A DNA stretch of 64,000 bases from Escherichia coli (GTDB taxonomy: Bacteria > Pseudomonadota > Gammaproteobacteria > Enterobacterales > Enterobacteriaceae). Positions 2,615 through 64,000 of this stretch are shown piece after piece. The notes under the pieces are model-generated. The model did not search any database, was not told the origin of the DNA, and was given only the letters and a program-made list of their open reading frames with translations. Location: NCBI RefSeq assembly GCF_016903815.1, contig NZ_CP069973.1; one strand, given 5' to 3'. Positions within the stretch are counted from its first letter, which is position 1. Every line of letters starts with the position of its first letter. Both the position numbers and the translations under genes were made by a program.

Positions 2615-3189
2615 AATAGAAACTCATTCGAAAAGGGAATGATGCAATGATAATTGCCACAACCTATTTTTACCATCTATAGATGGTTTTATTTACATAT
2701 TATTGGTGAATGCAAGACGTTATTTTTACCAGCCATAAACTTCTTGATTACATAGTATTACGAAAGGATTTTACTGAGAACCAGAAGTAATATTCCTTAT
2801 CATCAAAATTCATCATCTTTGCCAAAGAAAAATGTTCAGAAAATAATCCATGGGAAATTGCCCGGCGCGCTTACTATTTTTATGGATTGTTAGTCTTTGC
2901 ATGAGCAAGCGGACTGATACATTTCTCTTTGTTCTCATTCAGAAAATCTCATCAGTCGGCGTTCAGACCGGTGTTGTGCTTTATGGATGCGTTACGCTCC
3001 TGATGACGTCATTTGACATTCAACAGCATCACGGGGTCGCACGACATTTCACGTCAGTCAGCGCTATAGCTCAGGAACAAATTTTCCCGAATTGGGATAT
3101 ACCCGCAAAATGCTGGTGTTGTGGGGAGAATTTGGTTGAGTTCGGTAGAAATGATTTTTAGGCAGAACGCTTAAATTGTGGCGTCCTGA

Positions 3190-3221
3190 AACGAAAAACG
3201 GACCTCCGTGGAGGTCCGTTT
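3190..3221 (-). terminator. Stem-loop (AAACGGACCTCC / GGAGGTCCGTTT) with T-rich tail on minus strand; likely the tRNA-Phe terminator
   Basis: Perfect 12-bp inverted repeat at 3196..3207 and 3210..3221 read directly from sequence. Confidence 0.5.
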
Positions 3222-3230
3222 ATATGAATT

Positions 3231-3252
3231 TGGTGCCGGACTCGGAATCGAA
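3231..3252 (-). repeat. 22-nt copy of the tRNA-Phe 3' end (island attachment-site direct repeat), not a full tRNA
   Basis: tggtgccggactcggaatcgaa is the reverse complement of the tRNA-Phe 3' end (GGTTCGATTCCGAGTCCGGGCACCA) with one C missing; homology stops after 22 nt. Confidence 0.7.
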
Positions 3253-45909: not shown

Positions 45910-46588
45910 GGCGCGCAGCCTGTTTTATGCCGCGAACGGTATCGCCATTACGCAGACCGACGCCGTTAGCTTCTTCCATATCAATATGCAGTTCCAGCAC
46001 TGCATCCGCCGTGACGCGTACCACTACATGGCTGAGCACACCACCGCGCGGACCGTTTGTTTGCACATCGATTTCCATTCCGTCATGCAGGCCGTGCAAT
46101 TCGGCTTCTTCGGGCGAGATATGGATATGGCGCCAGGCGACAATCATGCCGTTGTGTTTCACCACCCGCCCTTTCGGACCGATGATTTCAATGCCCGGCG
46201 AATCCAGCAGATCCCCCGACATGCGCACCGGAGCTTTAGTGCCCAGCGCAAAGCCGTCGGCCACAGAGATTTCCACCTGCGTGGCATTACGCAGTGGCCC
46301 TAACACGCGCACTTTGTTGAGCTCGCCTTTTGGCCCGCGCAGCGTCACCATCTCTTCGGCGGCATACTGACCGGGCTGTTTCAACGCTTTAGAACGGGTT
46401 AGCGTAGAGCCGTAGCCAAACAGAATGTCCATATCTTCACGGCACAGATGAACATGGCGGTTGGACACGCCCACCGGAATATTCAGCGCGACGGGCGCGG
46501 CAGCAGGCGCTGCCGTTTTTTTACTGGTGGCAAGTTCCTGCAAAATTTGTTGGGTAATCCACTCGGCTTGTTGTTCGGTGTAATTCAT
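45902..46588 (-). CDS. Phosphotransacylase, PduL type
   Basis: GVSNRHVHL ... ALKQPGQYAAEE ... AWRHIHISPEEA motifs. Confidence 0.85.
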   Translation of the reverse strand: MNYTEQQAEWITQQILQELATSKKTAAPAAAPVALNIPVGVSNRHVHLCREDMDILFGYGSTLTRSKALKQPGQYAAEEMVTLRGPKGELNKVRVLGPLRNATQVEISVADGFALGTKAPVRMSGDLLDSPGIEIIGPKGRVVKHNGMIVAWRHIHISPEEAELHGLHDGMEIDVQTNGPRGGVLSHVVVRVTADAVLELHIDMEEANGVGLRNGDTVRGIKQAARHG

Positions 46589-46727
46589 AATGGGTACGAC
46601 CTGATTATTGGGTTATCTTATGGGTAATGGGCGTCTAACGATCAGGATAGGGAGTAACGACGCCCGGTTTTTGTTTATCAGCAGGACTTTTTTGACTGCT
46701 TCACGGAGGCTGAACAAAGTTATCCAG

Positions 46728-47846
46728 CTAGCCGGTAATCAGGTCGATCAACCCTTCGACATCATGCGTCGTCACCTGCCGCGGGTTCGACGCGGTACAA
46801 CCGTCGGCCAGCGTCGAATTCACCAGTGCGCTGCGCAACTCGATGATTTTTGCACGGTCGATACCCAGTTCGCTGAGAGTGACGGGGATGCAGAAATGGC
46901 GATTGATCTGGCGGATCTCCTGAGTCATCAGCGCGATGGCCTGCTCCGGTACCGCATGGTCAATGCCTATGATTTGCGCGCAACGGTGATAGCGATCGCG
47001 GGTTTCAGTGCTGGCCCGTTTGCTGTTGAAGTCGATGACAATCGGCAGCAGCATGGCGTTAATTTTGCCATGAGGAATATGCAGCATCCCGCCGATGGCG
47101 TGTGCCATGCCGTGTACCAACCCCAGCCCGGCGGAGTTAAATGCCATGCCTGCCATACAGGAGGCATTGTGCATGTGGGTGCGCGCCGCAATGTCTTTTT
47201 CGTCGTTAAACACCTGCGGCAGATAGCGCCAGGTCAACGCGATGGCTTTTTCCGCCAGCGCATCGCTAAAGTCATTTGAGCCAGTAGAGACAAAGGCTTC
47301 AATGGCATGGGTCAGCACGTCCATGCCGGTATCTACCGCGACATGACGCGGCGCGGTTAACACTAGGTTAGGATCGAGAATGGCGATTTCCGGCACCAGT
47401 TGCCCGGAGATCAACGGATATTTGCGGCCATTTTGCGGATCAGAGATGATCGCGTAGGACGTCACTTCAGAGCCGGATCCGCTGGTTGTGGGAATAGCAA
47501 TGAGATCGATTTGATGATCTCCAAAATACTCTTCCAATGTGACTTTAATTCCTTTCGCAGCGTCCAGCGACGAGCCGCCGCCGAGGGCGATAATAACGTC
47601 GGGCTTAAAGGCTTTAAAACGCGCCGCGCCGGAAGTCAGAATATCAATATCTGGATCCGGAGTAACCTCGCCGAAAATGCATACCGATGCCTCAGGCATA
47701 TGGCTTATTAAATAACGAGTTTTACCTGATGACATCATAAAATCATCGGTGACAATACCGACTCGTTTATTATTAAATTGGCATAGAGAGGTTATTGCCT
47801 CTTCACCAAAATAAATTTTGGGGCACGAAAAATAATAGCGGGCCAT
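46728..47846 (-). CDS. Iron-containing alcohol dehydrogenase (PduQ/EutG-like), first gene of the operon
   Basis: GGGSSLDAAK and His-rich metal site (HGMAHAIGGMLHIPHG). Confidence 0.85.
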   Translation of the reverse strand: MARYYFSCPKIYFGEEAITSLCQFNNKRVGIVTDDFMMSSGKTRYLISHMPEASVCIFGEVTPDPDIDILTSGAARFKAFKPDVIIALGGGSSLDAAKGIKVTLEEYFGDHQIDLIAIPTTSGSGSEVTSYAIISDPQNGRKYPLISGQLVPEIAILDPNLVLTAPRHVAVDTGMDVLTHAIEAFVSTGSNDFSDALAEKAIALTWRYLPQVFNDEKDIAARTHMHNASCMAGMAFNSAGLGLVHGMAHAIGGMLHIPHGKINAMLLPIVIDFNSKRASTETRDRYHRCAQIIGIDHAVPEQAIALMTQEIRQINRHFCIPVTLSELGIDRAKIIELRSALVNSTLADGCTASNPRQVTTHDVEGLIDLITG

Positions 47847-48064
47847 GTGTAACTACCTTAATCATGGTAAACGACCAAATTTGATGTCGTTAACCTAACA
47901 TGGCGATTTTTTTAATGGACTGAGGATGTTTGTGCAGGTGAAGGATTATTTTGCGGTATTGTTTTGCCTTGAGCAAAAAAGTCCTTTTCTAGGAAATACC
48001 TAAAATCTGATACAGTCAAACTCAATATTTATTGTCAGAGAATGAATAAAAGCGGGGTGTTTTT

Positions 48065-48703
48065 TTGCCGCTGCACTGCTTCAGGAATGTATTCACCCCT
48101 CATAAAGGCTTCAATGACTCTCCGCCATGGCAAACATGCCATAGGGGGAGATTTTCAGATAATGATAATAATGTTCGCCCACATCCGATTGTAAATGGAT
48201 CAGAAAAACGGCCGCGTATTGCCCTGCTGAATGTGGATTACGTCACCAGTTTTGAACTGCCTTTTCGCTTGCTGCTTACCCGGACACCACAACTGATTGC
48301 CGCGCTGCGTGAAGAATGGGGCATCAGCCAGAAAAATGTGGTGTTTAACGATAAACGGTTTGGTTGCGTGTACAGCCTGAAGGCCAGCCTTTCTGGTGTG
48401 CCGGATACATTCCGGTATCATCTGTCTCACCGTATTCGTCGCGTGGTTGGGAATGAAAACACATCATTGCCATATCAGCAGGTTGCCCGGGAAGTGAAAG
48501 CGCCCCGTGAACGGCTGAAGTATGCACTGGAGGCGGGTTTACTGGTGACTGCACTGGACGGCCTGTTCTGGTTTGGCAGTCAGCGTATTGCGGCTGATGT
48601 TCTGAGGCTGAGAAAGGCCGGAATGCCGGTGGTGACCACGACCGTGGAGGTGCACGATAACCTGACAGGAACAACCCGCAAAGTACCGGCATACCATCTC
48701 TGA
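48065..48703 (+). CDS. Hypothetical protein (start uncertain)
   Basis: 212-aa ORF, no family recognised. Confidence 0.4.
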   Translation: MPLHCFRNVFTPHKGFNDSPPWQTCHRGRFSDNDNNVRPHPIVNGSEKRPRIALLNVDYVTSFELPFRLLLTRTPQLIAALREEWGISQKNVVFNDKRFGCVYSLKASLSGVPDTFRYHLSHRIRRVVGNENTSLPYQQVAREVKAPRERLKYALEAGLLVTALDGLFWFGSQRIAADVLRLRKAGMPVVTTTVEVHDNLTGTTRKVPAYHL

Positions 48704-48798
48704 TACAACCATCAAGGGGAATATTGCTCTGGCAGCAGCAGTACGACATTCTTTATACTTTATCCCCGTGCCTGAAAATATGTGCTAAGGAAACGGGA

Positions 48799-49032
48799 AT
48801 GGCAAGGTCCGATTATGATATTATTAATCTGTCTCTGAAACATGAACTGAATGAGTGGCTGACAGAGAGAGGTTATGCCGGACTGGCGGATAACCGGAAC
48901 CGCTTGGCAGAGGTGGTTACCCGGAAATTGCAGGACAGCTTTTATATAAACGTTTCCTGGGATGCGCTGAACACGGCATACAGTGAACACCCTGAGTGGT
49001 TTTCAGGGCTTGTCTCCGGAGATGAGAATTAA
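48799..49032 (+). CDS. Small hypothetical protein (77 aa from the Met with AAGGA Shine-Dalgarno; ORF extends to 48724)
   Basis: ORF with plausible ribosome-binding site. Confidence 0.4.
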   Translation: MARSDYDIINLSLKHELNEWLTERGYAGLADNRNRLAEVVTRKLQDSFYINVSWDALNTAYSEHPEWFSGLVSGDEN

Positions 49033-49084
49033 TAAGTGGATTATGCTGCCATCAGGCAGTGTGATTGCCGGCAGGGATTTCGTT

Positions 49085-49276
49085 TTATTCTGTTTCTTCC
49101 CGGGGGGCGGGTTTGAATTTTCCCAGAAAGTTGTACATCGGTCGCATGCAGGGATGCGGATAGCCGTCCCGCATAAACACCACCCGGGTTTCCTCAACAC
49201 TGGTCACGGTGACAAGCGCACCATGATCGTCTTTGTATCGCTGATTGACTTTCGGTAATGGAACATCTTCTGACAT
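49085..49276 (-). CDS. Small hypothetical protein (63 aa)
   Basis: ORF only. Confidence 0.35.
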   Translation of the reverse strand: MSEDVPLPKVNQRYKDDHGALVTVTSVEETRVVFMRDGYPHPCMRPMYNFLGKFKPAPREETE

Positions 49277-49906
49277 AAATTTTAGTACGGTAACAGTTAA
49301 CTAAATTTTCATGTGGTAGCACTGAATCAGGAGACTGCGTTTCCTGATGTGCGCTGTTAATTTTCTGTTTTTACGAAACATTTTCCCCTTCTTCCTGTAT
49401 ATTTTATTGCGCTCCTCCTTTCATGTCCTTCCCATATCCTGAAACTCACTTAAATGCTGTTGAATCGTCATGCATTGCAATTTTCAATGACTGAAATCAA
49501 AAATTGCTATTTTTTTAGCTAACCAACTGTATTAAAAGCATTCAGTGGAATAATTTTCTGCACTTTTCCATTAATTATGGTTATAAATTTTGCAATGTGC
49601 TGTTTTTGCGATATATGGCAGAATAAAGAACTGTTCATTTGTGTTATATCGATCGATAAATCTGTCACATTGCTGTAGTTCAGATCATTATTCTATAATG
49701 ATCAAAAATAAGTCAGCTAAAAATTGGCAGATTTATTGCTCAGCATTCTGGTACCGGTTGATGCGGGTAAATACCGGAAGGGCGGTAGCGTGCCATCGCA
49801 AAACATGGTGGGAGGTATCGTCAGGAGGCTGGTGATTGTTGGTATGACATGAATAAAAGGTTTTTCGTTTGACTGGAAAATTATGTTGCAGGAACGAGAG
49901 GGCTGA

Positions 49907-50257
<351 letters not shown>

Positions 50258-50357
50258 CCACTTCAGTTTTTTTATTTCTGAATAAAGCGACATCCACGAT
50301 ATAACGTCGTGGGTGTCGGTGATGATTCTTTTTTTGTTCGCAGATTAAGGTGCGTTT

Positions 50358-52145
<1,788 letters not shown>

Positions 52146-52538
52146 TACCGGACCATTTCTTTATTCCGGACTTTCCCCATACTGTTATTATCAGGTTTAT
52201 TTAATTCGCCATGAACCCGTTATTTAACGATATTCAGATGCGTCTTTTTCATCTGAACCACTCGCCGTACTCCTGGTACTGGAATGTAAGATTCATACCT
52301 CTGGAAGCCGTGTATATTGGCAACGATACCTGTCATATCACCATTACCTGTAATCAGTCCGGTTTTCACTGAGCGTTATATCAGAAACCTTAATGAGCTG
52401 TTACCGGTTCTGAAACGGCGGTGGGATGTGACACCGGCAATCATCTGCGCAGTGGAATACCTTTCCTGGGTAACGGTATCGCACTGACTCTCTCCCTATA
52501 ATTAACAATGGTTTAATACCTAAACACTGAATCTGCCG

Positions 52539-52979
52539 ATGACTTCTGAAGTGAAACTGAAAACCGGTGGTGACCCCCGGTCATTACCGGATTATGCTGC
52601 CCTGCGCGATGAAATCAGCAAACTGACCCACCCGGCACGCCCTGATGTGGACTGGCGTTACGTGGAAACGCTCTGCCTGCGTCTGTATGAACACAATGGC
52701 GTGGAATTACAGACGGCATCCTGGTACACCATTGCCCGGATGCATACAACAGGGTTAAGTGGTCTGAATGAAGGGCTGGCTCTGATTGCTGCGCTGACCC
52801 GGCATCACTGGTCAGTGATGTGGCCGCTGAATACACACTCCCGGCTGGAAATTATTACCGGTCTGTTCAACCGTCTGCAAAAAACGCTCCGGGCCATGCC
52901 TCCGGATAACCGTGACAACCTGCCCCTGCTGTATCAGACCGAAACATTCCTGAAGACACTGAGTGATCTCCTTCCATGA
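52539..52979 (+). CDS. ImpA_N-domain protein (T6SS-associated TssA/VasL-like N-terminal domain)
   Basis: [40 protein letters not shown] fits the remembered ImpA_N pattern. Confidence 0.45.
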
Positions 52980-53114
52980 AAATACGCAGGCTTGGCACGA
53001 ACTTAAACAGAGCAGTAAAGTGGTAGACTGGCCCCCTGAATCTCCAGACAACCAATATCACTTAAATAAGTGATAGTCTTAATACTAGTTTTTAGACTAG
53101 TCATTGGAGAACAG

Positions 53115-53480
53115 ATGATTGATGTCTTAGGGCCGGAGAAACGCAGACGGCGTACCACACAGGAAAAGATCGCAATTGTTCAGCAGAGCTTTGAACCGGG
53201 GATGACGGTCTCCCTCGTTGCCCGGCAACATGGTGTAGCAGCCAGCCAGTTATTTCTCTGGCGTAAGCAATACCAGGAAGGAAGTCTTACTGCTGTCGCC
53301 GCCGGAGAACAGGTTGTTCCTGCCTCTGAACTTGCTGCTGCCATGAAGCAGATTAAAGAACTCCAGCGCCTGCTCGGCAAGAAAACGATGGAAAATGAAC
53401 TCCTCAAAGAAGCCGTTGAATATGGACGGGCAAAAAAGTGGATAGCGCACGCGCCCTTATTGCCCGGGGATGGGGAGTAA
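53115..53480 (+). CDS. insC: IS2 transposase InsC (orfA)
   Basis: [56 protein letters not shown]. Confidence 0.95.
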
Positions 53481-54343
53481 GCTTAGTCAGCCGTTGTCTC
53501 CGGGTGTCGCGTGCGCAGTTGCACGTCATTCTCAGACGAACCGATGACTGGATGGATGGCCGCCGCAGTCGTCACACTGATGATACGGATGTGCTTCTCC
53601 GTATACACCATGTTATCGGAGAGCTGCCCACGTATGGTTATCGTCGGGTATGGGCGCTGCTTCGCAGACAGGCAGAACTTGATGGTATGCCTGCGATCAA
53701 TGCCAAACGTGTTTACCGGATCATGCGCCAGAATGCGCTGTTGCTTGAGCGAAAACCTGCTGTACCGCCATCGAAACGGGCACATACAGGCAGAGTGGCC
53801 GTGAAAGAAAGCAATCAGCGATGGTGCTCTGACGGGTTCGAGTTCTGCTGTGATAACGGAGAGAGACTGCGTGTCACGTTCGCGCTGGACTGCTGTGATC
53901 GTGAGGCACTGCACTGGGCGGTCACTACCGGCGGCTTCAACAGTGAAACAGTACAGGACGTCATGCTGGGAGCGGTGGAACGCCGCTTCGGCAACGATCT
54001 TCCGTCGTCTCCAGTGGAGTGGCTGACGGATAATGGTTCATGCTACCGGGCTAATGAAACACGCCAGTTCGCCCGGATGTTGGGACTTGAACCGAAGAAC
54101 ACGGCGGTGCGGAGTCCGGAGAGTAACGGAATAGCAGAGAGCTTCGTGAAAACGATAAAGCGTGACTACATCAGTATCATGCCCAAACCAGACGGGTTAA
54201 CGGCAGCAAAGAACCTTGCAGAGGCGTTCGAGCATTATAACGAATGGCATCCGCATAGTGCGCTGGGTTATCGCTCGCCACGGGAATATCTGCGGCAGCG
54301 GGCTTGTAATGGGTTAAGTGATAACAGATGTCTGGAAATATAG
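53438..54343 (+). CDS. insD: IS2 transposase InsD (orfB)
   Basis: 301-aa ORF with the IS3-family DDE core; overlaps insC in the frameshift arrangement. Confidence 0.95.
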
Positions 54344-54355
54344 GGGCAAATCCAA

Positions 54356-55084
54356 GTGGCTTTACCGGAAGCCATGGTGAAGGGATATATCACCCGCCTG
54401 GAGAACCAGCCTGTGCAGGGGGAAGTATCGTCTCCGGTAACGCTACTGGCGCAGGCACTCAGGCTTGAAGCTCCGGATGTGCAGGAACATCAGACCCTGC
54501 CGCACTCCCGTCTGGTGTATGTTGTTTCTGAAACAAAAACAGAGCCCACACTCTTCCTTCAAAAATCCCCGCTCACGTTTCTGAAAACGTTTGTTACAGG
54601 TGTCTGTACGGCATTGCTGGCGGTCTGCGTGGCCATTCCGGGATGGCAGTTTCTGACACAGCCATCACCGGCGGAGCAGCAACTCAGGGCGCTGCTGACA
54701 CCCTCACCGGATGTGCTTTCAGCAGACCAGATGATGCAGCTCAGCAGAACACTGTTAAATCATGCGTCAGAGTGGATAACCCTTTCCGGTCAGCAGATAA
54801 CGCGACTGACAGAATTCCCCCCGGCATACAACCTGCAACGCAGTGTGCAATTGCTGCAGCAACTGATGGTACTTTTCCCCGACAATCCTCGTGTTCAGGA
54901 AATGGTGGATAACTGGCAGAAGAGTGCAAGGAGTCGTGCGCTCCCGGAAGAGGCGATGACTGGCTGGAACGAAGGCATGACCCGCTTACAGCTGTTGGCT
55001 GAGCGCCTGAACCGTCCGGATGAACAGCGGGGAAAATACATGACGGTCAGTGAGCTGAAAACGGAGGTGTCTGGCATCATGTAG
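54356..55084 (+). pseudogene. Membrane protein gene split by IS2 (5' 60 bp at 52964..53023, remainder here); possible VasL-like C-terminal part
   Basis: Reading frame is continuous across the IS2 target duplication; contains a transmembrane segment. Confidence 0.55.
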
Positions 55085-55275
55085 GCTTTTAACCGGCATA
55101 TCCTGGCAGAAGAACAGTTGTGTCACTATGGTGAAGTCCGCAACCAGAATGGAAGCGAGCAGCAGCAAAAACAAATGAAAGATGCATTTGTTAAGCTGAT
55201 TCACGTTTACTGTTTTATATAAAGCCTTTAGGATGTGGGGGAAGGGGAGTGTTGCAATTTATTCGGTGAGATAGT

Positions 55276-55983
55276 TTGTTTGTGGAGTGTTTAAGCGCTT
55301 TTGGATGTTCGTCTGTTGTTTCGAATAGTATGGTGAATATGAATGGTAAATATAATGTCAGGAGTGAATTGTTAGCTCGTTGTATCGGAACTGGTAGATT
55401 GAAAGGAGATGTGAGAAGTGATTTTATTGGGTTTAATGGTAGTAAACAGGTAGGTTATGTTTTATTAACTTTGTTCTTAACGAAAGTAATAAATTCTGAT
55501 TTGCTCTCTCATTATCGTATATTTAATCGTTTTTTGCATTATGAGAGAAAAGTTATGGACATATATAATTCTTTGAGTGATATAGAAGTTGATTGTATTT
55601 GCCAGGAAGTGATGGCTATATATGAACATACTCAGCGATGCTGCAACGAAAAGAAAATCACAACTATCCAGTTAGGCAGGAAACTTAATGGCAGGTATGC
55701 AGATACGATTGCTGAGTTAAAAGAAACAGCAGAGATAAGAGGGGAGGATGTGATTTCTTTTGAGATGGATATATTGAATTCTTTTAATGATGCGGATGAA
55801 TATCACGGACGTGTTAAACTGGAGTTGGATATACCTGCTTCAGATATATTATATTGCCATGATTTTATTGATTCAAAACATGTAAACTCCTGGTTGGTTG
55901 AACCACATGAGTGGGTGGTTATAAATCGTTCTCTCAATGGGATTGTTACAGTGCCAGTATCATCAATAAAGATTCTTTATTGA
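55276..55983 (+). CDS. Hypothetical protein, AT-rich gene (start uncertain)
   Basis: ORF only. Confidence 0.45.
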   Translation: MFVECLSAFGCSSVVSNSMVNMNGKYNVRSELLARCIGTGRLKGDVRSDFIGFNGSKQVGYVLLTLFLTKVINSDLLSHYRIFNRFLHYERKVMDIYNSLSDIEVDCICQEVMAIYEHTQRCCNEKKITTIQLGRKLNGRYADTIAELKETAEIRGEDVISFEMDILNSFNDADEYHGRVKLELDIPASDILYCHDFIDSKHVNSWLVEPHEWVVINRSLNGIVTVPVSSIKILY

Positions 55984-56123
55984 TAAATATGTTTGTAATA
56001 TGTTTTATATGTTCATCAGGATGAAAGTAAGCAATTTTAGTAGTGGCTAATTAAACGTCATTTAATGTTTGTTGCTATATGTTGAAAGCATAAACAGGTT
56101 TCTTTTGCATAAAGTAAAAATAA

Positions 56124-57356
56124 ATGAATGATAATTTTTTAACGGAGAAAGTCCTTACTGGAGAGAATGTTCTGCGTGCAGCAATTGCTCGTATTGAGTG
56201 GATTTTTGAAATATTTCCATCAGTTTGTCTCTCTTTTTCCGGTGGTAAAGATTCCACCGTGCTTTTCCATCTTGTGGCTGATGTGGCCCGCAGGAAAAGA
56301 CGTCGTTTCTCTGTACTGTTCATTGACTGGGAGGCTCAGTACCAGTGCACCATTGAACATATTCAGAAGATGCGGGAAATGTACCATGATGTGACGGAAA
56401 CCTTTTACTGGGTGGCGCTTCCCCTGACCACGGTAAACGGTGTCTCGCAGTTTCAACCGGAGTGGATATGCTGGGAGCCTCGTGTGACCTGGGTTCGCCA
56501 GCCACCGGAAGAGGCCATTACGGATATGGCGTATTTTCCCTTTTACCGGTATGCCATGACGTTTGAAGAATTTGTTCCGGCATTTTCTTCCTGGTTTGCT
56601 GGCAACCGGTGTGGAGTGGCAGTGCTGACCGGTGTCCGGGCGGATGAATCCCTCAACCGCTTTATGGGACTGGTGTCCCAGCGCAAACTGAGATATGCCG
56701 ATGATAAGCCTTGGACCACGGCATCGCCTGAAGGGTTTTACTACACTATGTATCCGCTGTATGACTGGAAAACTCGTGATATCTGGATATATCACACCAG
56801 AACCCGTGCCATCTACAATCCCCTGTATGATCTGATGTACCGTGCCGGCGTACCGTTACGCAACATGCGTGTCTGTGAACCTTTTGGTCCTGAACAACGT
56901 AAGGGACTGTGGCTTTACCATGTTCTGGAACCGGAAACCTGGGCCAGGATGTGTGAGCGGGTGTCAGGGGCTGCCAGCGGGGCACTTTATGCCAATGAAA
57001 GCGGGGCTTATTTTGCCCTGCGTAAGCGCATATCAAAACCAGCCCATCATACCTGGCGCAGCTATGCGATGTTTCTGCTGGATGTGATGCCGGAAAGAAC
57101 GGCAGAACATTACCGCAACAAGATAGCTGTCTATCTGCGCTGGTATCAGACGCGGGGCTTCCCGGATGACATCCCGGATGAACAGGAGAATGACCTGGGG
57201 AGCCGGGATATTCCGTCCTGGCGACGTATCTGTAAGACTCTCATAAAGAATGATTTCTGGTGCCGTACCCTCTCCTTCAGTCCGAACAAACCCCGGCACT
57301 ATGAACGTTATCTGCAGCGTATGAAAGAAAGGAGGAAGGAATGGGGGATTCTGTGA
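56124..57356 (+). CDS. PAPS-reductase-family PP-loop protein with C-terminal extension (IbrA/YbdN-like)
   Basis: PP-loop motif SFSGGKDST; 410 aa; followed by an overlapping ParB-like gene. Confidence 0.75.
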   Translation: MNDNFLTEKVLTGENVLRAAIARIEWIFEIFPSVCLSFSGGKDSTVLFHLVADVARRKRRRFSVLFIDWEAQYQCTIEHIQKMREMYHDVTETFYWVALPLTTVNGVSQFQPEWICWEPRVTWVRQPPEEAITDMAYFPFYRYAMTFEEFVPAFSSWFAGNRCGVAVLTGVRADESLNRFMGLVSQRKLRYADDKPWTTASPEGFYYTMYPLYDWKTRDIWIYHTRTRAIYNPLYDLMYRAGVPLRNMRVCEPFGPEQRKGLWLYHVLEPETWARMCERVSGAASGALYANESGAYFALRKRISKPAHHTWRSYAMFLLDVMPERTAEHYRNKIAVYLRWYQTRGFPDDIPDEQENDLGSRDIPSWRRICKTLIKNDFWCRTLSFSPNKPRHYERYLQRMKERRKEWGIL

Positions 57357-57979
57357 CACCGGAGATACTGAGCAACATGATTCGTCAGTACTTCAGCCAG
57401 GAACGACCAGAAGAAGAGGCCATACAGGCCCTGAATCATCTGCGCAGGGTGCTTCATGAGGTCAGTCCATTTGCACAGGAGCCTGTGGACTGTGTGCTGT
57501 GGGTGAAAGCAGATGAGGTGGTGGCCAACGATTATAACCCCAATGTCATGGCGCCGGGTGAGAAGAAACTGCTGAAACATTCACTGGAGCAGGATGGGTT
57601 CACGCAGCCTGTGGTTGTCTCGGAAGAGAAGGAGCATTATCTGGTCGTGGATGGTTTTCATCGTCAATTACTGGGCAGGGAAGCAGGTACGGGAAAACGC
57701 CTGAAGGGCTGGTTGCCAGTGACCTGTATTAATCCGGAAAGAAAGGGACAGGCCTCACGTATTGCTGCAACCATTAGACATAACCGGGCCAGGGGGAAGC
57801 ACCAGATAACTTCAATGTCTGATATTGTCAGGGACCTGTCGCGGCTGGGCTGGACGGATGAACGTATTGGTACGGAGCTGGGTATGGACCAGGATGAAGT
57901 TCTCAGGTTGAAACAGATTAGCGGGCTGACGGAGCTGTTTCTGGAAGAGGATTTCAGTCCGGCATGGACGATTCGCTGA
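57341..57979 (+). CDS. ParB-like nuclease-domain protein (IbrB/YbdM-like)
   Basis: ParB/Srx-type motif VVDGFHRQ; 16-bp overlap with the upstream gene. Confidence 0.7.
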   Translation: MGDSVTPEILSNMIRQYFSQERPEEEAIQALNHLRRVLHEVSPFAQEPVDCVLWVKADEVVANDYNPNVMAPGEKKLLKHSLEQDGFTQPVVVSEEKEHYLVVDGFHRQLLGREAGTGKRLKGWLPVTCINPERKGQASRIAATIRHNRARGKHQITSMSDIVRDLSRLGWTDERIGTELGMDQDEVLRLKQISGLTELFLEEDFSPAWTIR

Positions 57980-58018
57980 GACCGTCATATATGTATATTA
58001 TTTCAGTGAGTTAATGTT

Positions 58019-58327
58019 TTGAGCAGGAAAAAGAGTACCCCGGAAGTCGTGGAATACATGGTTGCACAGAAGCTGGAGGCTGCGGGTTGCTGGCGCAGAG
58101 CTTCCGCCCGCTGGCTTTTTGTTATGGGAAATGTTGAATGTACAGAAGCACAACGGGAGTGGTTGTTGTTGCGCAGGAATTATTGCCTGGCGCAGATATC
58201 GTCCCCGCCGCTACCTGAAAAGCTGGATATCAGCGAAGTGGCGAAAGCTGCAGATGCCACGCTGAGGCGAATGGGGATTGCCAGTCCGTCCGGGGAGGTA
58301 TTCAGAAAAGGTACACCGGTCTGTTGA
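58019..58327 (+). CDS. PerC-family transcriptional regulator-like small protein; start uncertain (TTG 58019 or ATG 58058)
   Basis: KLEAAGCWRRASARW resembles the conserved PerC-family core; from memory. Confidence 0.5.
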   Translation: MSRKKSTPEVVEYMVAQKLEAAGCWRRASARWLFVMGNVECTEAQREWLLLRRNYCLAQISSPPLPEKLDISEVAKAADATLRRMGIASPSGEVFRKGTPVC

Positions 58328-58347
58328 TATTCAGGTAACAGGTATTA

Positions 58348-58992
58348 ATGATGAAGAAAGGAATGGCAAACAGTATATCAATGACATGGCAACTTTTATG
58401 CGATGATCATGGTTTTACCCGGGAGCACTACAATCAGCTGAAGAAATTCAGCCCGGAGGCATTACGTGAAATTATTGCTGAAATAGCCTGCTGCCATCCG
58501 TCAACCAGTATATTGCTCAGGAATAAGTGGCTGACACTGCCGGAGGATATTCCGGAGCAGGTTACCCGTGAATACGAACGAAGAATACAGAACTGTCCAT
58601 CTTTCAGGAGCGAGAAAGAGGCGGAATCCTGGCTAAATGAACTGTTTTTTGCTGTGATTGCGCCGCTATACCGGGTTGTCCCCGGACAATCAGAACAGGT
58701 TGAATCCTTTGTTCTGCAGCTTATTGCCGAACAGGAGCGGGTTTGGGAGCTTATTCTAACCAATGATGGTTATTCATGGCATTGCGCACTTTATGATATA
58801 TTATTTCATCTGGTTTTACGAAATATGGAAGACCAGCCTGAACATCAGAGACAGCGAATAACAAAAATACTTAATGAGTCCGATACAAGGCGGGTTGCAG
58901 AAGAGATTAAATTCCGGATTCAATATCTTCAGGATGAAGAACAAAAGAGAGTTTTAAGTGAGTTGGTAAATGTCCTGATTTCAAAAAGATAA
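58348..58992 (+). CDS. Hypothetical protein (214 aa)
   Basis: ORF in the same-strand cluster. Confidence 0.5.
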   Translation: MMKKGMANSISMTWQLLCDDHGFTREHYNQLKKFSPEALREIIAEIACCHPSTSILLRNKWLTLPEDIPEQVTREYERRIQNCPSFRSEKEAESWLNELFFAVIAPLYRVVPGQSEQVESFVLQLIAEQERVWELILTNDGYSWHCALYDILFHLVLRNMEDQPEHQRQRITKILNESDTRRVAEEIKFRIQYLQDEEQKRVLSELVNVLISKR

Positions 58993-59056
58993 AACATGTC
59001 GGAGTAATTTTTCTATATATTAAAAAAACAGGTTTGTATTACCATAAAGGAGATCG

Positions 59057-59380
59057 GTGAATAACCGTTATTGGATGATCTCCTTCCATAAAAATACGCG
59101 CAATCTAACGGTTCGCTCTGTGCCAAAAAAAGACATTGCTCACAATATCGAGTTAATCATTCGGCCGTTGAACATTCCCATTGAAAAATTTCTCAGTATA
59201 GAATATACCAATGTTGAGGGCATTCCTCTTACATCTCGAAGGATAACTATCATGGGTCTAAAACCAGGTCCAAAACCAATTGCTAAGTCAACAGGAAAAC
59301 CGGATCAACGCCGACGCGATAATAAAGATACTCCTGGCAATACTCCGGGATTAAAGCCAAGTAAGTCCACAGGTAAGTAA
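59057..59380 (+). CDS. Hypothetical small protein with Lys/Pro-rich C-terminus; start uncertain (GTG 59057, ATG 59075 or ATG 59252)
   Basis: ORF only. Confidence 0.3.
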   Translation: MNNRYWMISFHKNTRNLTVRSVPKKDIAHNIELIIRPLNIPIEKFLSIEYTNVEGIPLTSRRITIMGLKPGPKPIAKSTGKPDQRRRDNKDTPGNTPGLKPSKSTGK

Positions 59381-59388
59381 AAAATAAG

Positions 59389-59412
59389 GGTATAAATACT
59401 TATTTATACCCT
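59389..59412 (-). terminator. Rho-independent terminator (perfect 11-bp stem GGGTATAAATA / TATTTATACCC) with T-run on the minus strand
   Basis: Hairpin read directly from sequence. Confidence 0.65.
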
Positions 59413-59427
59413 GACTACATATCCAGT

Positions 59428-60210
59428 CTACTGAAGGTGTTTCTGCAGCCAGATGCACGTTCCTTCTATATCATACGCCTGTGCCCCATACCCTTTAGCA
59501 AGCAAAGTCTCTGGTAAATACTCGTCATATTTATCCAGATACTTGTCGGGAACAACTGCAGCAAGCTCAAACTCTGAAGGTAGCCCCGACAATAGCATTT
59601 TCTTAAGTGCACGCTGGACAGAGGCAACGCCTGAGTCCTCTACCTCTATCACACCTGCAAATGAACTGGCTTTAAAGCCACAACGTATAATCAGGGACGT
59701 AATTGTATTGACAATTTTATCCCCCATCCACGGGATCACGTAGCAGTTCTGACCACTGGCAATAAAACAGTCATTTTGTAGATTGTAGCGTTGGAAGTTG
59801 TCACTTCCTTCCGCGAAGAGGCTTCTGGCTGCGGCATCAGCATAATCGACTCTCTTGTTGCCTACCGCGATACGGTAATCATTTTCCCTGTAGATAGTGA
59901 GCATTTCCTGGCGAACAACATCATGAACAGACATCCCGGTACCACTGAATAGTGGCGGCTGACCGCCTTTAGTCGTCTCAACATAGATAACCTTTTTTTC
60001 AACCTCGATCTCTGTCACTTTCCAGCGCCGTCCGCCGAAGATGATGTGCTGCTCCGGCAAAAGTGGGGAGTCTACAGGCACTGTGCCAAGAGTTCGGTTT
60101 CCCGTTACAATGCGAAACTCCTCAGGTGTATTGAATACGGCATAAAACGTGTAGTGATTAGTCAGCTTCTCCCCCTCAGCCCCGACAACTATTTCACCGC
60201 TGGTTAGTTG
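59428..60210 (-). pseudogene. 3' remnant of a gene truncated by the IS629-like element; function unknown
   Basis: The ORF's first ~14 codons are read from IS sequence, so the native 5' end is missing. Confidence 0.5.
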
Positions 60211-60604
60211 AGTGAGCAGTACGGGGTCGGACCGGTATGCAGCGAACTGCATATTGCCCCGTCAACGTATTACCATTGTCAGCAACAGCGACATCATCCG
60301 GATAAACGCAGTGCCCGTGTGCAGCACGATGACTGGCTGAAGAGAGAGATACAGCGCGTATACGATGAAAATCATCAGGTGTACGGTGTGCGTAAAGTCT
60401 GGCGTCAGTTGTTACGGGAAGGAATCAGGGTGGCCAGATGTACAGTGGCGCGCCTCATGGCGGTTATGGGACTTGCCGGTGTTCTCCGGGGTAAAAAGGT
60501 CCGTACGACCATCAGCCGGAAAGCCGTTGCCGCAGGCGACCGCGTAAACCGTCAGTTCGTGGCAGAACGTCCTGACCAGTTGTGGGTGGCTGATTTTACT
60601 TACG

Positions 60605-63344
<2,740 letters not shown>

Positions 63345-63389
63345 TGAGTTCACAGATAAAACACTCTCCAGGAAACCCGGGGCGGTTCA

Positions 63390-63532
63390 TTCCTAAAAAG
63401 ACATGTCTTGCCCAATATACTCAACATGAACTAGATCTGGTTGCTGCTCAGCTAAACAACAGACCGAGAAAGACACTGAAATTCAAAACACCGAAAGAGA
63501 TAATTGAAAGGGGTGTTGCATTGACAGATTGA
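63390..63532 (+). pseudogene. IS30-family transposase, C-terminal fragment
   Basis: Translation ...[29 protein letters not shown] matches the IS30-family C-terminal motif. Confidence 0.6.
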
Positions 63533-63538
63533 ATCTAC

Positions 63539-63874
63539 AGTAGCCTTTTTTAATATTTCATTCTCCATTTCAATGCGTTGTAGCTTTTTCCTCAGCTTAC
63601 GTATTTCGATTTGTTCTGGTGTTATCGGAGAGGCTTTTGGTGTTTTGCCCTGATGCTCATCACGCAGTTGTTTGACCCATCTTGTCATTGTGGAAAGGCC
63701 AACATCCATAGCTTTGGCGGCATCTGCCACCGTGTATTTCTGGTCAACAACCAGTTGAGCGGATTCGCGTTTAAACTCTGCGCTAAAATTTCTTTTTTTC
63801 ATTGGAGCACCTGTGTTGTTCTGAGGTGAGCATATCACCTCTGTTCAGGTGGCCAAATTCAGTGTGCCACTTCA
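63539..63874 (-). mobile_element. IS911 fragment (left inverted repeat and 5' part of orfA)
   Basis: [49 protein letters not shown] matches IS911 OrfA, diverging after ILKKAT; terminal ...AGTGTGCCACTTCA. Confidence 0.8.
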
Positions 63875-64000
63875 AGCCGGGAGCGGCGTCAGCCAGTCTC
63901 CCTTTACCCGCGCTTTTTCGGAAAGCCCACCCCAATGTTTTTCTCCTACACCCCAGCCGGTCAGCAGGACCTTATCCCCGGTCTGATATTCAGGATGTGA

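Follow-up and report, generated by a model that had tools for sequence, protein, structure and literature searches.

The open reading frame (ORF) on the minus strand near the right end of the stretch of Escherichia coli DNA analysed here (64,000 nucleotides of contig NZ_CP069973.1, hereafter the window) is, as judged by sequence comparison, the C-terminal remnant of sngC, the gene for the Lhr-like SF2 helicase of the Shango operon sngA-sngB-sngC. We consider it very probable that this ORF is a non-functional pseudogene, that a deletion joined sngC to an intron-bearing copy of IS1203, and that the Shango system was lost with it. Shango is composed of a TerB-like protein, an ATPase, and a DEAD/DEAH helicase and, in experiments with E. 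coli and P. aeruginosa, has shown activity against phages (bioRxiv 10.1101/2022.05.11.491447; 10.1101/2022.11.11.516204). A phylogeny of helicases places SngC in one clade with BrxHI, DruE, and DpdJ (PMC12278908). Here, we describe the remnant, the protein from which it derives, the joint with IS1203 and its occurrence in complete E. coli genomes, and the readings that compete with a deletion.

The gene and the protein it encoded

The six-frame ORF list places the ORF at 59428..60252 on the minus strand, with an ATG start and a product of 274 residues. In a BLASTP comparison with the intact allele of E. coli M217, residues 12-274 of this product are identical at 263 of 263 positions to residues 470-732 of the helicase WP_000093094.1. 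The sngC remnant proper occupies 59428..60219 on the minus strand (codons 470-732 and the stop codon, 100% identity over 263 aa), which is the 3' 792 bp of the gene, the last 263 of its 732 codons, and 36% of the protein. An earlier note on this DNA had described 59428-60210 as a C-terminal coding remnant whose lost 5' portion could have encoded a larger protein. The match to the C-terminus of a 732-residue helicase bears out both the remnant at this place and the larger protein; only the right limit was set 2-9 bp short, DNA homology to the intact M217 locus reaching 60219 and stopping there.

When 5,426 complete E. coli genomes were searched with 59380-60210 (megablast), 785 genomes were matched, mostly over a full-length gene annotated as 'DEAD/DEAH box helicase'. 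In M217 the helicase (732 aa) is encoded at the end of an operon of three genes, together with a TerB N-terminal-domain protein (769 aa) and an ATP-binding protein (438 aa). PADLOC profiles recognize all three products as SngA (E=6.7e-100; Pfam TerB_N/TerB/TerB_C), SngB (E=8.7e-187; Pfam BrxC_BrxD), and SngC (profile PDLC03960, E=3.5e-278; Pfam DEAD at 25-200 and Helicase_C at 261-363). The remnant matches PDLC03960 over profile positions 468-719 of 720 (E=1.4e-71). The PADLOC profile of BrxHI is matched by the remnant over positions 437-691 of 698 (E=6.7e-14) and by full-length M217 SngC (E=1.4e-115). Pfam and NCBIfam scans of the 274-residue product are empty, even at E<=1, and a PDB sequence search with the remnant alone returns no relative; it is the comparison of E. 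coli genomes and the PADLOC models, and these only, that identify the remnant. The gene had been put down as one of unknown function, a label that no longer holds in view of the PADLOC matches and the M217 operon, which name it as sngC of the Shango defence system. The homologue search proposed at that time does recover full-length homologues, that of M217 having DEAD and Helicase_C domains in the part that is lost here.

An AlphaFold2 (AF2) model of intact SngC was built on 51 full-length homologues (pLDDT 91.9, pTM 0.91). Over its full length it superposes on Lhr-core 5v9x_A (Foldseek E=3.3e-30, TM 0.69) and on MrfA (YprA; 6znp; TM 0.61), and in the model the RecA1-RecA2-winged helix-domain 4 architecture belongs to the intact allele only. 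PDB sequence matches of intact SngC all fall within residues 4-410 (Lhr 5v9x/7lhl, MrfA 6znp, Brr2, Hel308, and RecQ), a part that is lost here. The winged-helix helices of the model span residues 418-432, 437-446, and 455-467 and are followed by a beta-wing at 471-481, so that the break at residue 469/470 cuts through the winged-helix domain between helix 3 and the beta-wing. The lost 5' 1.4 kb of sngC encoded both RecA motor domains and winged-helix helices 1-3. No catalytic motifs are left in the remnant, and the domains of an SF2 motor (DEAD/ResIII and Helicase_C) are both in the deleted part. When mapped on the model of the intact allele, the retained portion contains the beta-wing and a beta-rich module (about 503-551). 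It ends with an alpha/beta region (569-731) that corresponds to the 'domain 4' region of Lhr. In the search for the operon partners, the M217 segment L001 12841-21204 has no match anywhere in the 64-kb window. Both sngA and sngB are thus absent from the window, and SngC lacks its operon context here.

The joint and its distribution in E. coli

The window was aligned with intact sngC and with two complete IS1203-type copies. This three-way alignment places the deletion joint at 60212..60219 (no strand assigned), in the 8-bp microhomology GTGAGCAG, which is common to intact sngC and IS1203 and occupies IS positions 403-410 of the complete 1310-bp element. The microhomology forms the right-hand end of an imperfect match of 21 of 26 columns (window 60195-60219), and the IS match extends back to 60195 in megablast. 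IS1203 and the Shango region have 156 8-mers in common, GTGAGCAG being one of them, and six 10-mers. The proposal that the joint is the best homology available between the two was rejected on these numbers, and with so many shared 8-mers the deletion site was not uniquely favoured. The case for microhomology is that the joint coincides with one shared 8-mer, which is its sole basis. A joint in the interior of the IS is no transposition boundary; its simplest reading is a deletion between two internal sites at short homology.

In the history that we propose, an IS1203, which a group II intron had entered by then or entered afterwards, would have lain to the right of sngC codon 470. A single deletion would have fused sngC codon 469/470 with IS position ~403-410 through the 8-bp microhomology, the mechanism being likely RecA-independent short-homology recombination or replication slippage. 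This deletion would have taken the left end and orfA of the IS, the 5' 1.4 kb of sngC and, presumably, sngB and sngA. The native terminator would have been kept only as part of the undeleted 3' end, and the outcome would have been the loss of Shango immunity in the lineage of the window.

The joint was counted with a 321-bp query at 100% identity in 5,426 complete E. coli genomes. The exact joint is present in 88 of them, strain 7/2 included, and is therefore no assembly artefact. RefSeq/PGAP annotates it as 'ATP-dependent helicase; incomplete; missing N-terminus' adjoining 'IS3 family transposase; incomplete', so that the remnant is already known in public annotation as a partial helicase pseudogene. 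Strain 7/2 matches window 46060-64000 at 100% identity, and the M217 island runs collinear with 46037-60219 (98.7-99.5% identity), barring a 1.33-kb IS2 insertion. In other E. coli the intact Shango operon is found on the same phe-tRNA-type genomic island, and Shango has been seen on E. coli genomic islands of such kind (PMC11096173). At an identity of at least 95%, 544 genomes contain the 3' part of sngC and 462 contain the 5' part, a difference of 82 that is close to the number of joint carriers (88). This suggests that the carriers have lost the 5' part and that it has not moved.

These counts bear on another reading, in which the 5' part of sngC, together with sngB and sngA, reached another place in the chromosome through inversion or transposition between IS copies and would persist there as operon fragments. 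IS-rich islands often invert between IS copies, and the island adjoins cadC (pheU side) in strain 7/2 and pheV in M217, both of which would agree with such an event. With an inversion between IS copies, however, the joint would show a full IS end, and none is seen, and the count of the 5' part falls below that of the 3' part by about the 88 joint carriers. No second match is present within the window either, and we regard a rearrangement of this kind as very unlikely. For the deletion, we infer the order of events and, from the genome counts, the loss, rather than relocation, of sngA and sngB.

The junction between the IS right end and IS30 occurs in 177-209 genomes, five of which were inspected beyond strain 7/2. 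RIVM_C037794, WP5-S18-ESBL-07, and AF34 are like the window, and Ecol_881 and JCH767 carry a further deletion of 9.65 kb that joins window 52718 to 62371, with a 4-bp overlap in Ecol_881. This deletion places a T6SS ImpA-N pseudogene next to the intron maturase region and has removed the ibrAB-like genes, perC, the sngC remnant, the IS 5' piece, and most of the intron. The further deletion in these two genomes shows that the island erodes stepwise. The ancestral state, in which intact Shango and an intact IS1203::intron would stand together at this place, was not found with a reconstructed query of the full IS left half and intron or among the five inspected genomes; the reconstructed query matched complete IS::intron copies at unrelated loci only.

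Short database matches and expression of the ORF

A phmmer search with the 263-residue remnant against 1.84 billion representatives gave 1,294 matches. Among the best 150 of these, about 45% are 700-760 aa or longer by our own tally and are aligned at about residues 470-740. Many other matches are 255-285 aa long and start exactly 5 or 13 residues before the first residue of the remnant, at the equivalent of E. coli M465 (KHMGTCGLL) or of position 457. Eight short homologues (about 260-285 aa) were checked individually. Six of the eight are contig-end fragments (P0001, P0002, P0059, P0117 with two contigs, P0120, and P0114) whose called starts are 2-308 bp from the contig end; wherever there are upstream bases and readable DNA, their frame is open and helicase-like to the edge, P0114 being assigned by gene coordinates alone. 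In P0051 a 293-aa helicase ORF comes first and an in-frame TAA immediately precedes the Met, and P0138 has a frameshift near residue 447 with the motor domain in another frame. No ribosome-binding motif, which would have hinted at an internal start or at a split gene, is evident as conserved before the M465-equivalent Met, and full-length homologues mostly have Leu at this position.

True homologues of about 270 aa that start at the equivalent Met had been named as the observation that would overturn a truncation. None of the eight is a genuine short gene, and the truncation stands. The candidate family of ~260-aa database proteins was rejected, its members being fragmentary calls on broken longer helicase genes. 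The short matches have a common start because M465 or 457 is the first Met available. Gene callers in public metagenome collections start broken SngC-like genes at the same internal Met, even with an open frame upstream (L015). Searches with such remnants yield a spurious ~260-aa family, which calls for caution in the use of databases.

The ATG of the ORF, at 60250-60252, is antisense to IS orfB. It opens an IS-derived 5' extension of 11 codons (MQFAAYRSDPV; 60220..60252, minus strand) that is recognized by its alignment to IS1203, and the start codon is fortuitous IS sequence, as the earlier note had held. An in-frame TGA lies 9 nt upstream of the ATG and a weak GGGG Shine-Dalgarno-like motif 5 nt before it. 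On the minus strand, a crude consensus scan reveals nothing promoter-like from the ATG to 60700, so that the ORF is probably not expressed.

On the other side, the gene has kept its own terminator, which had likewise been recognized before. Folding and a scan locate an intrinsic-terminator-like hairpin with a T-run at 59377..59412 on the minus strand (stem 59387-59412). The AT-rich stem has 11 pairs, only 3 of them G-C, and is followed by TATTTTTT on the minus strand; the hairpin has an energy of -17.2 kcal/mol (z = -3.7 versus shuffles). It is flanked by sngC and by a convergent 107-aa ORF (59057-59380), and the same sequence is found 3' of the intact gene in M217 (100% identity over 59380-60210).

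An intact ORF with an ATG, a weak GGGG motif, and a terminator, many phmmer matches of 255-285 aa, and a retained region that forms a conserved module also present in BrxHI could together be taken for a stand-alone functional gene, which would encode a C-terminal-domain protein of about 270 aa from the IS-borne ATG. This reading is highly improbable, however: none of the eight inspected short homologues proved genuine, the break falls inside the winged-helix domain of the AF2 model, no promoter is predicted, and 100% identity to the intact allele provides no evidence of independent selection. It is scarcely credible that weak translation from the IS-borne ATG would supply a 274-aa module of winged-helix wing and domain 4 that binds DNA or a partner, for example interfering with incoming Shango or phage DNA.

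The IS1203 copy, its island, and comparison with known systems

The element at the joint is a 5'-truncated copy of the IS1203/IS629 type that is interrupted by an intron. Alignments assign IS positions ~403-795 to 60212..60604 (plus strand) and the rest of IS1203, positions 796-1310 with an intact right inverted repeat, to 62875..63389 (plus strand). The copy is 98.4% identical to annotated IS1203 (381 bp) and about 96% to IS629, with 95-99% identity over the 3' part. The gene had been said to end at an IS629-like element, a name that is fair at this level of identity; the boundary is not an IS terminus, as IS positions 1-402 are absent and with them the left inverted repeat, orfA, part of the frameshift region, and the first orfB codons. 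A complete IS3-family element has both inverted repeats and orfA-orfB with a programmed frameshift, of which this copy retains the right end at 63389 only. Between the two IS pieces, inside orfB, lies a complete-looking group II intron of 2270 bp (60605..62874, plus strand), which is identified by its domain V (Rfam RF00029, 64.9 bits at 62788-62874), its ends (GTGTG...CTAC), and a reverse transcriptase/maturase ORF of 507 aa from the ORF list (61261-62784, plus strand; annotated ltrA).

That IS1203/IS629 simply transposed into sngC is barely conceivable, although the gene stops where IS sequence begins and the region is rich in IS elements (IS2 at ~53023-54354; IS30 and IS911 fragments after 63389), since IS position ~403 and not an inverted repeat stands at the joint, the right end at 63389 alone is intact, there is no target duplication, and the 5' sequence of sngC is not resumed beyond the IS.

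Complete IS1203::intron composites in other E. coli are the same composite as that of the window. Composites with an intact IS left end are found at unrelated loci in PK5 (near yeeJ) and E89 (near IS66). Unlike a complete IS1203, the window copy is without positions 1-402 and cannot transpose on its own. The shared composite suggests retrohoming into an IS1203 site, or spread of the composite.

The right end of IS1203 is directly followed, at 63390-64000, by an IS30 transposase fragment and an IS911-type orfA fragment (63452-63838, minus strand). Beyond the IS911 fragment, strain 7/2 has an alcohol-dehydrogenase fragment, IS1, and an Orn/Lys/Arg decarboxylase-antiporter module. To the left of the sngC remnant, a plus-strand segment at 56124-58327 encodes an IbrA-like PAPS-reductase/DUF3440 protein (410 aa), an overlapping IbrB-like ORF (212 aa) without a Pfam match, and a PerC-family regulator (102 aa). 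It is followed by two hypothetical ORFs (214 and 107 aa) without a family match, the 107-aa one being convergent on sngC. The IS2 insertion (1.33 kb at ~53023-54354) is absent from M217 and splits a T6SS ImpA-family N-terminal pseudogene, with T6SS (VasL) and ShlB/POTRA fragments around it. An intact 595-aa protein with NERD and UvrD-type helicase domains is encoded at 50358-52145 (plus strand). It matches PADLOC candidate C3a187 (E=4e-140), shows GajB-like matches, and is called '3'-5' exonuclease' in RefSeq; an IS3-family insertion disrupts the Ecol_881 copy. We note it as a possible candidate for a one-gene defence system within this island.

The remainder of the window, 1-46000, was read by the annotation of strain 7/2, identity to which was verified over 46060-64000. 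By this reading the window would begin at cadB/cadC and continue with a CP4-like island segment (YeeU/CbtA toxin-antitoxin, antirestriction, and DUF932), pseudouridine utilisation genes, and a full glycyl-radical propanediol (grp) microcompartment locus with a small reverse-transcriptase-domain ORF. ARAGORN finds no tRNA genes, although window 3098-3252 is similar to the M217 sequence next to tRNA-Phe and to the first bases of that gene.

The picture is one of ordinary defence-island decay, in which one E. coli lineage (88 of 5,426 genomes) is without Shango through the erosion of an IS-rich island. As the remnant matches the SngC model at E=1e-71, it may be miscounted in inventories of defence systems, and the loss of Shango is relevant to predictions of phage susceptibility.

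Among known proteins, Lhr-core and MrfA (5v9x and 6znp) have the same fold as intact SngC, of which the remnant represents the winged-helix wing and the domain-4 region. Sequence identity to them is only about 17-19%, and SngC occurs in a TerB/ATPase defence context and not in DNA repair. BrxHI, an Lhr-like helicase accessory to BREX, has a profile that matches both the remnant and full-length SngC, but the SngC profile scores far better, and the intact allele is flanked by SngA and SngB, without BREX genes. Since the window has neither the motor domains nor sngB and sngA, the remnant cannot act as Shango; phage resistance, which has been demonstrated for other Shango operons, is not expected from it. 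Compared with the SngC of Shango (Millman et al. 2022; Johnson et al. 2022), the remnant is without the DEAD and Helicase_C motor and sngB and sngA are missing from the window, but what is left of it is 100% identical to the C-terminal 263 residues of that helicase.
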